Sequence record: MZ234030.1
Origin: Escherichia phage vB_EcoM-CHD16UKE1
Length of the DNA stretch: 64,000 nucleotides
Reading direction: 5' to 3' (one strand)
Positions within the stretch are counted from its first letter, which is position 1; the number at the start of each line of letters is the position of its first letter. Both the position numbers and the translations under genes were made by a program. The notes beneath the pieces were generated by a model. It was not told where the DNA came from and made no database searches. It saw nothing but the letters and a program-made list of their open reading frames with translations. Below are positions 59,870 to 62,426 of the stretch, one piece after another.

Positions 59870-60178
59870 ATGAAACTGACGACTGAACAAAAAGTAGCAA
59901 TTCGTGAAATTTTGAAAACTAAATTGTCCATGGGTGTTTCAAACGTAGTTTTTGAAAAGTCTGATGGTACTATTCGTGTTATGAAAGGTACTCGCGATGC
60001 TGACTTTATGCCAACCATGCAAACTGGTAAATTGACTGAATCTACTCGGAAAGAATCTACTGATATGATTCCAGTATTTGATGTTGAACTTGGTGCATGG
60101 CGAGGTTTTTCTATTGACAAATTGATTTCCGTTAATGGTATGAAAGTTGAGCATTTGCTCCAATTTATTGGTAAATAA
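59870..60178 (+). CDS. Hypothetical protein
   Basis: 102-aa ORF. Confidence 0.4.
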   Translation: MKLTTEQKVAIREILKTKLSMGVSNVVFEKSDGTIRVMKGTRDADFMPTMQTGKLTESTRKESTDMIPVFDVELGAWRGFSIDKLISVNGMKVEHLLQFIGK

Positions 60179-60234
60179 ATGCTTTAAGAATTATTTGTTA
60201 TTATTAATTCATCTGTTAACAAAAAGGAAAAACG

Positions 60235-60570
60235 ATGTCTGAAGTACAACAGCTACCAATTCGTGCTGTCGGTGAATATGTTATTTTAGTTTCTGAACCT
60301 GCACAAGCCGGTGATGAAGAAGTTACAGAATCAGGACTTATTATCGGTAAACGTGTTCAAGGTGAAGTTCCTGAACTATGTGTAGTTCATTCTGTAGGTC
60401 CTGATGTTCCTGAAGGTTTCTGTGAAGTTGGTGATTTGACTTCTCTTCCAGTTGGTCAAATTCGAAACGTTCCACACCCTTTTGTAGCTCTGGGTCTTAA
60501 GCAGCCAAAAGAAATTAAACAAAAATTCGTTACCTGTCACTATAAAGCTATTCCGTGTCTTTATAAGTGA
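60235..60570 (+). CDS. 31: Co-chaperonin gp31 (GroES-like)
   Basis: 111 aa; recalled as T4 gp31. Confidence 0.88.
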
Positions 60571-60578
60571 TATAAATA
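60571..60578 (+). promoter_or_regulatory. T4 late promoter TATAAATA
   Basis: Exact TATAAATA right after gene 31 stop, about 140 nt upstream of rIII. Confidence 0.5.
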
Positions 60579-60717
60579 ATAATATGAATTGGGTGTCGGA
60601 ATAATAAGTTAACCGAACAATTCTATGTGGTAGTCTACAACTGAGAGATCTGTCGAAAGAAGATGAAATTCAGAAGAACGTGACTACCGAGTTTTAATCT
60701 CTAACGAGAATTTTTAA

Positions 60718-60966
60718 ATGATTAAACAATTACAACACGCTCTTGAACTGCAACGAAACGCATGGAATAATGGTCACGAAAACTATGGCGCATCTATTGA
60801 TGTTGAAGCCGAAGCTCTTGAAATCCTGCGTTATTTCAAACATCTGAATCCTGCTCAAACTGCATTAGCTGCTGAGCTTCAGGAAAAAGATGAACTTAAA
60901 TATGCTAAGCCTCTGGCTTCTGCTGCACGAAAAGCAGTTCGTCACTTTGTGGTAACACTGAAGTAA
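60718..60966 (+). CDS. rIII: rIII lysis-inhibition accessory protein
   Basis: 82 aa; recalled as T4 rIII. Confidence 0.85.
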   Translation: MIKQLQHALELQRNAWNNGHENYGASIDVEAEALEILRYFKHLNPAQTALAAELQEKDELKYAKPLASAARKAVRHFVVTLK

Positions 60967-61364
60967 TTTATTGGAGAGTCACTGCCTTAGTGTGAAGTTA
61001 AAACGAGGAGCCGTCGAACTGTCTGATTAATGATTTGCGAATCATTATAGTTTTAAGACCCCGGCAGTTTTACGGTGTACCTCTTGAATGTTATTCTTAT
61101 AGCGGCAAGTGCATGCTACCCCGAGGTGATGGCCAATCGGGAGTACGCCTCAAGGCCTATATATCCATCAGTATATATCTTATCCTCGAGAAATCGAACC
61201 CGGAACCTTTAAGCTAACGGTGTGCAACAGATAAGAGCTATAAGGTATGATGACGGGTTTATGGTTATCCTGGTCGTTAAATATCAAAAAACCTATGTTC
61301 CCCTTGAGGGCTTGCGCAGGCAATGCCAATAAGTCCTGCATTTTCATTTAAAAGAGAATTTATA

Positions 61365-61541
61365 ATGGCAAAACAAGCTAAAGCAAAGAAAGCAGTTGAA
61401 AAGAAAGTTGGTGATTCTAAACGCGCTGGCTACAAGCGTGGGTCGAACTCTCGTATCAATCAAACTGTTGAGAAGATCATGCGCCGAGCACGTGCGGTTC
61501 TTCGAGATGATGCTTCTCGTTTTGGTAAGCAGAAAGCATAA
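61365..61541 (+). CDS. Hypothetical small basic protein
   Basis: 58 aa from ATG 61365; Lys/Arg-rich; followed by strong terminator. Confidence 0.45.
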   Translation: MAKQAKAKKAVEKKVGDSKRAGYKRGSNSRINQTVEKIMRRARAVLRDDASRFGKQKA

Positions 61542-61546
61542 GTTGA

Positions 61547-61571
61547 GGACTCCTTCGGGAGTCCTTTTTTA
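61547..61571 (+). terminator. Rho-independent terminator
   Basis: GGACTCC-TTCG-GGAGTCC then TTTTTT; same hairpin as after soc. Confidence 0.8.
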
Positions 61572-61594
61572 TTTTCCAAAGATTGCATAAAGTT

Positions 61595-61624
61595 GTTTAC
61601 AGTATGGTTCCTTTGTGATAGTAT
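61595..61624 (+). promoter_or_regulatory. T4-type early promoter
   Basis: GTTTAC then TAGTAT. Confidence 0.5.
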
Positions 61625-61651
61625 TATCTTACACAAACAAAGGAGAATAAA

Positions 61652-61984
61652 ATGAAAACGATTAATCTGAACGCTGCAGTTAAAACTAAATGCTTCAATG
61701 GTAAATATGATGAAACTATGTGGTTCTTAATGGCAGTTGAAGGTGATATTATTGAAGTAGAAACAACAGAAGGTATGGGAACAGATTTCACCTTTACAAT
61801 TCAAGTTCATAATTTCTTTACTGGTTGGATTTATGAATTGAATACAGTAATCGTTGGAAAAATTGAACAAAATGAATTAGGTGAATGGTATTATGTTACA
61901 GCTCGCCAACGTGCCGAACGCTTAATTGAGAAGATGAAAAAAGTTGGTAAACTTGACATGCAGCATTGGAAAGTAGTAAAATAA
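61652..61984 (+). CDS. Hypothetical protein
   Basis: 110-aa ORF with RBS AAGGAG. Confidence 0.45.
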   Translation: MKTINLNAAVKTKCFNGKYDETMWFLMAVEGDIIEVETTEGMGTDFTFTIQVHNFFTGWIYELNTVIVGKIEQNELGEWYYVTARQRAERLIEKMKKVGKLDMQHWKVVK

Positions 61985-61986
61985 TT

Positions 61987-62015
61987 GTTTACTTTGGTAC
62001 AGGATATGATATTAT
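61987..62015 (+). promoter_or_regulatory. T4-type early promoter
   Basis: GTTTAC then TATTAT. Confidence 0.5.
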
Positions 62016-62051
62016 ATACCTGTACCGCAATTAAACATCTTGGAGAATAAA

Positions 62052-62426
62052 ATGAACTACATCAACTTTGAACGTAAATATGTTTCTAATGTTTCTAACG
62101 GTATTACAGGTTCTATTGATACTATTTGCCTTTGGAAACATCAAAATGGATCAGTATGCGAAATTGAGCAGTATATGACTCCTAATTACGTTTATATGCG
62201 ATTTGAAAACGGTATCACGGTTTCAATCACGATGGAAGGTTCCAACTTTAAAATCGCTCTGGATGATGATTTCCGTGAACGCGATTTAGGGACTCATCCT
62301 TGCTGGAATGGCGTTAATCGCAAGCTTTTGGTTAAAACTTGGATTCGTCATATTCTGAGTAACAGAGCTAAACCTGAGCATCTTGAAGCAATCTTTGATG
62401 TAGTTCTTAACGAATTTGATATTTAA
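62052..62426 (+). CDS. Hypothetical protein
   Basis: 124 aa from ATG 62052. Confidence 0.45.
   Translation: MNYINFERKYVSNVSNGITGSIDTICLWKHQNGSVCEIEQYMTPNYVYMRFENGITVSITMEGSNFKIALDDDFRERDLGTHPCWNGVNRKLLVKTWIRHILSNRAKPEHLEAIFDVVLNEFDI

Follow-up and report, generated by a model that had tools for sequence, protein, structure and literature searches.

Four-way junctions that set two arms side by side are found in the hairpin and twister-sister ribozymes, as well as in the yybP-ykoY Mn2+ and NiCo riboswitches, and RNAs of such complexity as a rule have a specific binding partner or a catalytic activity. The preQ1-I riboswitch and the leader of T4 gene 32 are formed by a small H-type pseudoknot with a long A-rich third loop, placed in the 5' leader of a message. 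PeSL are reportedly short composite promoter/stem-loop motifs, which occur in many repeats per genome and are substrates for recombination.

The locus described here lies in a window of 64,000 nucleotides, the whole stretch of DNA that was analysed, from Escherichia phage vB_EcoM-CHD16UKE1 (MZ234030.1). The spacer between rIII and the 30.9 homologue in this window very probably carries an array of structured modules, one of which, element A, is a predicted conserved RNA domain of the + strand that folds autonomously. Element A resembles the four-way-junction ribozymes and riboswitches in having few or no unpaired junction bases, conserved internal loops in the arms, and a variable closing helix; however, it gives no signature or model match, has no expression platform, and carries an extra three-way junction in one arm. 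As in small ribozymes, P1 varies freely and the conservation is located in the junctions and loops. A covariation-supported domain with near-invariant junction and loop nucleotides, as in a riboswitch aptamer, is also present, whereas no fixed coupling to an expression platform and a coherent downstream gene was found. Module B of the same spacer is similar to the preQ1-I and gene 32 leader pseudoknots in its general topology, its A-rich strand, and its position in a 5' leader; it differs from preQ1-I in its longer S2 and linker and in giving no Rfam PreQ1 match at E <= 10.

Orphan RNA motifs from phages and metagenomes (Weinberg et al. 2010, PMC2864571; 2017, PMC5737381; PMC10690425) share with element A a multi-helix covarying fold, a phage-borne and intergenic location, and conserved unpaired nucleotides. 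Unlike these motifs, element A has no Rfam 15 model, and its host group is that of the heavily studied T-even coliphages. The PeSL promoter-terminator cassettes of T4-type phages (PMC2839356, PMC4122927) are likewise short non-coding intergenic modules shuffled between genomes; in contrast, element A is a single-copy element of ~150 nt in the window, with seven helices, no promoter, and selection for RNA pairing. Module B is also present only once, and a promoter and terminator scan found no sigma-70-like promoter or intrinsic terminator inside 60967-61364.

No description of element A was found in the full-text literature. In the text of a 2023 screen of viruses and phages (PMC10690425), rIII, T4, and Straboviridae are not mentioned; the candidate list of this virus-wide screen may conceivably hold an unnamed prior prediction.

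The rIII-30.9 spacer and its modules

The window is a segment of a Tequatrovirus (T4-like) genome with the + strand order cd, 31.2, 31.1, 31, rIII, and 30.9 homologue. The rIII is 100% identical to the annotated rIII of many Tequatrovirus records, and over 521 nt spanning the locus the identity is likewise 100%, with many Tequatrovirus records from Escherichia and Yersinia. The features of the locus are as follows.

60718-60966, + strand: rIII, lysis-inhibition accessory protein, upstream cistron (ORF list; T4 synteny)
60967-61364, + strand: rIII-30.9 intercistronic spacer of 398 nt, with modules F, E, A, B, C, and D
60973-61003, + strand: module F, small hairpin (CACU 60980-83 / AGUG 60989-92) with an A-rich tail, read by eye only
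61005-61083, + strand: module E, long irregular hairpin with the base GAGG...CCUC and the apical stem UAAUGAUU/AAUCAUUA
61096-61244, + strand: element A, predicted 149-nt RNA domain (covariance model, covariation, and centroid fold)
61245-61298, + strand: module B, probable H-type pseudoknot (S1 61252-57 / 61269-75; S2 GGUU 61263-66 / AACC 61290-93)
61297-61314, + strand: module C, hairpin CCC-UUGA-GGG followed by CUUG, read by eye only
61317-61339, + strand: module D, hairpin GCAGG/CCUGC directly before the 30.9 RBS
61365-61541, + strand: 30.9 homologue, 58-aa basic protein (ORF; synteny with T4 gp30.9; phrog_1427, function unknown)
61545-61566: intrinsic terminator after 30.9 (terminator scan)
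61596-61624: early-promoter-like site in the 30.9-30.8 interval (promoter scan)

In the inspected records no RNA is annotated in the spacer, which is left blank or, in some, filled with short 'hypothetical protein' calls. The first-pass annotation had described it as a gap of about 400 bp without a convincing ORF, and this description holds, with 398 nt between the end of rIII (60966) and the start of the 30.9 homologue (61365) and no conserved frame. The only ORFs are a 60-aa TTG ORF and a 55-aa ORF on the minus strand, neither of which has a Pfam match. Across the homologues of element A no reading frame is conserved; for every frame there are homologues whose longest open stretch is no more than 11-17 aa, and their lengths (157-170 nt) differ by non-multiples of 3.

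The gap had also been called a GC-rich island. Its GC content of 42.0% is indeed above the window mean of 35.4% (sd 3.7) and stands at the 96th percentile among 398-nt windows; however, the flanking genes are equally GC-rich (rIII 41%, 30.9 44.6%) and the value is reached at 11 other places in the window. The core, element A (61096-61244, 46%), is the sole part of the spacer that stands out. The two copies of the direct repeat ACGGTGTRC, at 61072 and 61217, are real and are the only ones in the 64 kb (chance expectation 0.22); the pattern was picked post hoc from data already seen, and the copies fall in two different modules.

Several observations concern the surroundings of the spacer. Directly after the gene 31 stop, in the gene 31-rIII gap (60571-60717), TATAAATA stands at 60571-60578, which matches the T4 late-promoter consensus; given this match, late transcription of rIII and of the structured spacer is possible as well. 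Downstream of 30.9, the terminator at 61545-61566 is followed after ~30 nt by the early-promoter-like site at 61596-61624, which is a PeSL-like promoter-terminator layout. In the inspected Tevenvirinae genomes the RNA module array precedes the gene for gp30.9 (58 aa, very basic; phrog_1427, without a Pfam family).

The modules of the spacer recur in different orders in other genera, and module B is upstream of element A in some and downstream in others. A sequence related to module F, GTGATTCGCTACCTTAGTGCGGCTAGAAAA, is present in Dhakavirus, Jiaodavirus, and Tegunavirus, as well as directly after element A in a Grimontviridae phage. For module E, RNAalifold on nine variants gave 25 pairs, five of them with compensatory double changes; its apical stem is a perfect inverted repeat (I2). 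For module B, nhmmer gave 86 matches in the loci, among which 44 distinct sequences were listed, and a single match in the window. Its S2 occurs in complementary versions (UGGUU/AACCA, AGGUU/AACCU, UAGUU/AACUA, and UUGUGAG/CUCACAA, as well as GAUGG/CCAUC and GGUGG/CCACC read by eye), its S1 also varies, and its A-rich linker is GUUAAAUAUCAAAAA. In a fixed-register test, which is weakened by register shifts, 105 of 140 S2 cells were paired compared to 98 after shuffling, and 11 of 1000 shuffles reached the observed value. Module B is a probable H-type pseudoknot on the evidence of the per-sequence listing.

Most genera, as well as K41P2 and GAP161, have a module C behind element A or at another place in the spacer, with the variants GCC..GGC (Cronus), CCUC..GAGG (L075), and CCCGAAAGGGG (K41P2). 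The stem of module D (61317-21 / 61335-39), which had been pointed out as GCAGG...CCTGC, is real, and its counterpart in other phages stays paired with different sequences: GGGAGC/GCUCCC, GGGAAC/GUUCC, GGUGGAG/CUCCAC, GAACUGG/CCAGUUC, and GAGAG/CUCUC. A further small module, CCCAC-NNNN-GUGUACGC-NNNN-GGUAAC, is absent from the window and occurs elsewhere (L004 at ~1885-1915, L006 at ~2140-2175, L025, and L095); its arms change in a complementary fashion (CAUG/CAUG, CUCUG/CAGAG, CUUUG/CAAAG). In an IMG/VR copy of Klebsiella phage KPV15 (L018), the segment from module C to the middle of 30.9 is present twice in tandem, either as a real duplication or as an assembly artefact.

Fold and covariation of element A

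The covariance model of element A matches 61089-61249 with 186.6 bits, and this is the only copy in the window. Seven helices were first derived by comparing divergent copies and then formally tested. All of the following are on the + strand.

61096-61103 / 61237-61244, + strand: P1, closing helix, perfect 8-nt inverted repeat I3; its sequence is free and its complementarity is kept
61104-61157, + strand: arm 2, consisting of P1a, an internal loop, and P2
61104-06 / 61155-57, + strand: P1a, GGC/GCC, with a C-G pair changed to U-A in fHe-Yen9-01 and to U.G in L035
Within arm 2, + strand: conserved internal loop, AAGUGCAU / CUCAAG
61115-27 / 61132-48, + strand: P2, with the bulges A61142, C61146, and AA61135-36
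61158-61177, + strand: P3 hairpin, UAUAUA/UAUAUA (stem 61158-63 / 61172-77) with an 8-nt loop
61178-61236, + strand: arm 4, P4 enclosing the P4/P5/P6 three-way junction
61178-84 / 61230-36, + strand: P4, double changes in 6/7 pairs
61186-89 / 61194-97, + strand: P5, GAAA loop 61190-93, double changes in 4/4 pairs
61200-02 / 61218-20, + strand: P6, double changes in 3/3 pairs; possible extension 61198-99 / 61222-23
61224-29, + strand: near-invariant strand GCAACA in arm 4

P1, P1a, P3, and P4 meet without any unpaired nucleotide and thus form a perfect four-way junction. The thermodynamic centroid of the single sequence gives the same helices, including the P6 extension, with z = -1.96. When the whole 398 nt are folded as one unit, the z-scores are weak (-1.0 on the + strand and -0.4 on the minus strand), but these values are misleading since the region is modular.

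The pairing is conserved with compensatory changes in the homologues. In an unbiased alignment of 31 sequences by MAFFT, standard pairs make up 94.6% of the helix cells and both sides have changed in 30 of 44 pairs, whereas sliding the partner columns by 1-3 lowers the pairing to 30-40%. A covariance-model alignment of 40 distinct sequences, which is fitted to the structure and hence leans towards it, has 96.7% of the helix cells paired and compensatory double changes in 37 of 43 pairs, against 27-41% in the slid registers and with none of 500 shuffles reaching any of five measures. These cell counts overstate the number of independent events, because the homologues are fairly close (most of them >=80% identical) and many double changes are clade-inherited. 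Double changes are present in all seven modelled pairs of P1, in nine of the ten core pairs of P2, and in four of the six pairs of P3, which is 100% paired. Several pairs have nevertheless changed in more than one lineage: the double changes of P6 come from three separate lineages, namely L036, L076, and the Pseudotevenvirus/Slopekvirus copies (L100/L102/L103), and the A61198-U61223 pair of the P6 extension is swapped to U-A in Cronus and IT22. In the alignment as it stands, up to 17 of the 40 sequences leave the outer three pairs of P1 open, which is attributed to poor alignment of the variable flanks.

Wobble cells in the well-aligned helices comprise 55 G.U and two A.C. Therefore, it appears that an RNA is read from the + strand, and this asymmetry argues against a DNA-level element, such as the replication element that had been considered in the first-pass annotation, and against a gene on the minus strand. 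The T-loop-like string noticed earlier on the minus strand, GGTTCGATTTC, is merely the complement of the GAAA-capped P5 hairpin of the + strand (61186-61197). As for a tRNA, the helices of element A carry their G.U pairs on the + strand, and ARAGORN found no tRNA or tmRNA in the whole 64-kb window.

Much of the conservation of element A is located in near-invariant unpaired strands, namely GGCAAG-GCAU, GGCC, ACCCGGA-CC, GCUAAC, and GUGUGCAAC. Between genera, the nucleotide identity of element A is 77-91%, compared to 59-76% for rIII, gp31, and 30.9. A reading in which the region has no RNA function, being instead the degenerate remains of an intron, tRNA gene, or mobile element, a gene for a small protein, or an element acting at the DNA level, is very improbable. 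Such a reading would account for the short 'hypothetical proteins' of some gene callers, the T-loop-like string, and the variable presence among close relatives; however, it fits poorly with the conservation above that of neighbouring genes, which shows no sign of decay, with the compensated pairs and the strand-specific wobble, and with the lack of a conserved frame and of any Pfam, tRNA, or Rfam match, Rfam introns included. The earlier idea of something mobile is echoed only in that the core, element A, behaves as an exchangeable cassette. On the other hand, the reading of the gap as structured non-coding RNA is strongly supported, and across the entire gap rather than at one spot.

The P5 loop is mostly GNRA on the + strand (GAAA, GUAA, GGAA), but UAAA, UAAU, and UUUA occur too; therefore, no conserved tetraloop-receptor contact can be claimed. 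Several further contacts were considered and rejected. An H-type pseudoknot inside arm 2 (GGYG with CGCC) was abandoned since divergent copies assign these bases to an extended, bulged P2, and covariation is lacking for a GGCC/GGCC contact of loops, for the pairing of the two conserved loops through UGCAU/GUGCA, and for a tetraloop-receptor contact. One contrary change in Cronus is explained as a U-to-A swap that supports the A61198-U61223 pair instead. An all-against-all scan for column covariation was swamped by clade effects, and no tertiary contact in element A was demonstrated.

There is a perfect 8-nt complementarity, CCTCAAGG / CCTTGAGG, between a junction strand of element A (61148-61155) and the module C hairpin (61302-61309). 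It is not kept in Cronus, L073, and K41P2 and is thus probably a coincidence, although it could conceivably serve as an alternative pairing in this lineage.

Occurrence of element A and its cassette behaviour

A BLAST search with the core returned 407 phage records; ~20 further records carry a Pseudotevenvirus/Slopekvirus variant. The identity of the core is 91-96% in Klebsiella (Jiaodavirus), Enterobacter (Karamvirus), and Citrobacter (Moonvirus) phages, and 80-85% in Erwinia phage Cronus and Aeromonas phage PS49. In the BLAST-matched records with inspected annotation, the core is positioned between rIII and 30.9. More divergent copies are present in Serratia phage SP1, Escherichia phage EcS1, and Yersinia phage fHe-Yen9-01.

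Two other contexts were found. In one, seen in GAP161 and Olmo (Pseudotevenvirus) and in K41P2 (Slopekvirus), element A is flanked by uvsY.-2-like ORFs and by the convergent uvsW.1; in the other, that of the Grimontviridae phage PKM.Lu.22.1 (76 kb), its neighbours are early replication genes. The latter copy (L099/L101; L099 597-757) is diverged (150.6 bits) but still pairs, and it is accompanied by module F and a terminator; its presence in this phage implies a transfer of the cassette between phage families. A terminator is located downstream of element A in both of these contexts, no protein family is common to the neighbours in all three, and in all three the orientation of element A is that of the flanking genes.

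Element A is absent from T4, X20, and phiR1-RT, as well as from Proteus phage phiP4-3, in which 30.9 directly follows rIII, and none was seen in the spacer of an Acinetobacter phage. There was no match in complete E. coli genomes, nor in one genome per species from 185,579 bacterial and archaeal species. In IMG/VR, every copy confirmed by the model belongs to a contig whose size and content are T4-like; pattern matches beyond such contigs were random and were rejected by the covariance model.

The rIII-30.9 gap of T4 has 244 nt, which are almost identical to both flanks of the gap in the window, and it lacks ~153 nt (61092-61244). The extra piece is bounded by the perfect 8-nt inverted repeat (61096-103 / 61237-44), so that T4 lacks exactly the unit bounded by P1. 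Among phages with identical or near-identical rIII, the slot between modules E and B holds element A, a different module of ~50 nt, or nothing. The ~50-nt module, CTATCACGCGTCAGAAAAAGGTTATCTGTCTAAGTCGTGG, was seen in the E-B slot in L033, L049, L055-57, L060, L062, and L064, with a related sequence in L066. Element A, whose presence varies in this way among close relatives, is a cassette that can be exchanged or left out, and all the carriers found are virulent phages. T4 does well without it, and therefore any function of element A is dispensable in the laboratory.

This distribution bears on the relationship of element A to 30.9. The first-pass annotation had allowed for a cis-regulatory element, and a simple regulator of 30.9 is unlikely, given the variable modules between the core and the RBS, the presence of 30.9 in T4 without the core, and the two contexts without a downstream 30.9. 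The more specific proposal that element A is a riboswitch aptamer controlling the translation of 30.9 would be consistent with its location in the 5' region of 30.9 in most carriers, with its conserved pocket-like junctions, and with a module D that could mask the RBS. However, the modules standing between element A and the RBS vary in number and order, T4 and many relatives keep 30.9 and modules B, C, and D without A, and no 30.9 follows element A in the Pseudotevenvirus, Slopekvirus, and Grimontviridae phages, where a terminator is 50-250 nt away and no alternative pairing is evident. A riboswitch is thus improbable.

It is somewhat more plausible, but still unlikely, that the whole module array is a cis-acting mRNA element which sets the stability or read-through of the rIII/30.9 transcript, either as a set of barriers to exonucleases or RNase E or by processive antitermination of the put or EAR style. 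The array is always in sense orientation inside an operon and has no promoter of its own, it is upstream of a terminator in the two other contexts, with a terminator also after 30.9 here, and the spacer is full of stable hairpins (E, C, and D). On the other hand, a simple barrier does not need near-invariant unpaired nucleotides across genera, read-through in Pseudotevenvirus would go antisense into uvsW.1, and there is no similarity to the Rfam models of put or EAR.

Possible function and meaning of the module array

The first-pass annotation had proposed an Rfam scan along with folding and covariation analysis. In contrast to the latter, the former gave no credible family: scans of Rfam 15 at permissive E-values with 60000-62200, 60960-61370, and the divergent K41P2 copy returned chance-level matches only, all of them far below the gathering threshold and none spanning element A as a whole. 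The Rfam ribozyme models gave no match to element A even at E = 10, and no signature sequence of a known class was seen.

These results bear on the possibility that element A is a new class of self-cleaving ribozyme, which would cut the polycistronic transcript between rIII and 30.9, or elsewhere cut ahead of a terminator, and thereby uncouple the stability of the flanking RNAs. Its size and compact fold, a sequence-free P1, and near-invariant nucleotides in junctions and internal loops would suit such an RNA. The perfect four-way junction would set two loop-bearing arms alongside each other, as in the hairpin and twister-sister ribozymes, and the scattered, cassette-like occurrence in phage intergenic regions is also consistent with it. 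Nevertheless, with neither a model match nor the signature of a known class, self-cleavage has only an outside chance of being the function.

Overall, the best explanation, to which we assign a probability of roughly 80%, is that the spacer is an array of conserved RNA modules in which element A acts via its own fold. Lacking both a promoter and a terminator, element A is presumably made within the rIII/30.9 mRNA. Since its unpaired nucleotides are kept across at least 10 genera and three unrelated gene neighbourhoods, it would act via its own three-dimensional surface. It is probably not a switch for 30.9, because the link to this gene is neither necessary, as in T4, nor constant, and because variable modules precede the RBS; regulation of the adjacent 30.9 is therefore less likely. 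An RNA that is strictly conserved in phages of many Enterobacterales hosts and is at the same time dispensable looks like an accessory one, with a conserved host factor or ligand as its possible binding partner.

A possible course of events can be described as follows. Co-transcription of rIII and 30.9 would yield element A as part of the mRNA. Element A would fold autonomously into a four-way junction closed by P1, with an internal loop in one arm and a three-way junction in another. The folded surface would bind a factor or small ligand conserved among Enterobacterales hosts, and element A may serve as an accessory decoy or aptamer in host takeover or counter-defence. This role as a decoy or aptamer is put forward tentatively, on the basis of the conservation pattern and the context.

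A broader proposal, possible though rather doubtful at present, is that element A stands for a class of functional RNA that is new, being either a self-cleaving ribozyme or an aptamer for the capture of a host protein or a signalling nucleotide, and that virulent phages swap it as a plug-in cassette. If this is true, the spacer would be a slot array for RNA 'accessory genes', equivalent at the RNA level to the hyperplastic regions of protein genes in T4-like phages. The core of the spacer is a predicted four-armed RNA of ~150 bases common to ~400 T4-like phages, missing from T4 and without a matching family in Rfam 15. T-even genomes are among the best studied, yet the spacer is blank in them or bears spurious 'hypothetical protein' calls. 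This four-way-junction RNA is kept more strictly than the surrounding proteins, and it is exchanged between genera and apparently between families. Natural variants that are nearly isogenic, with element A, with another module, or with an empty slot as in T4, make the function directly testable by cassette swap. Several hundred phage genomes, some of them candidates for phage therapy, would also have their annotation corrected.
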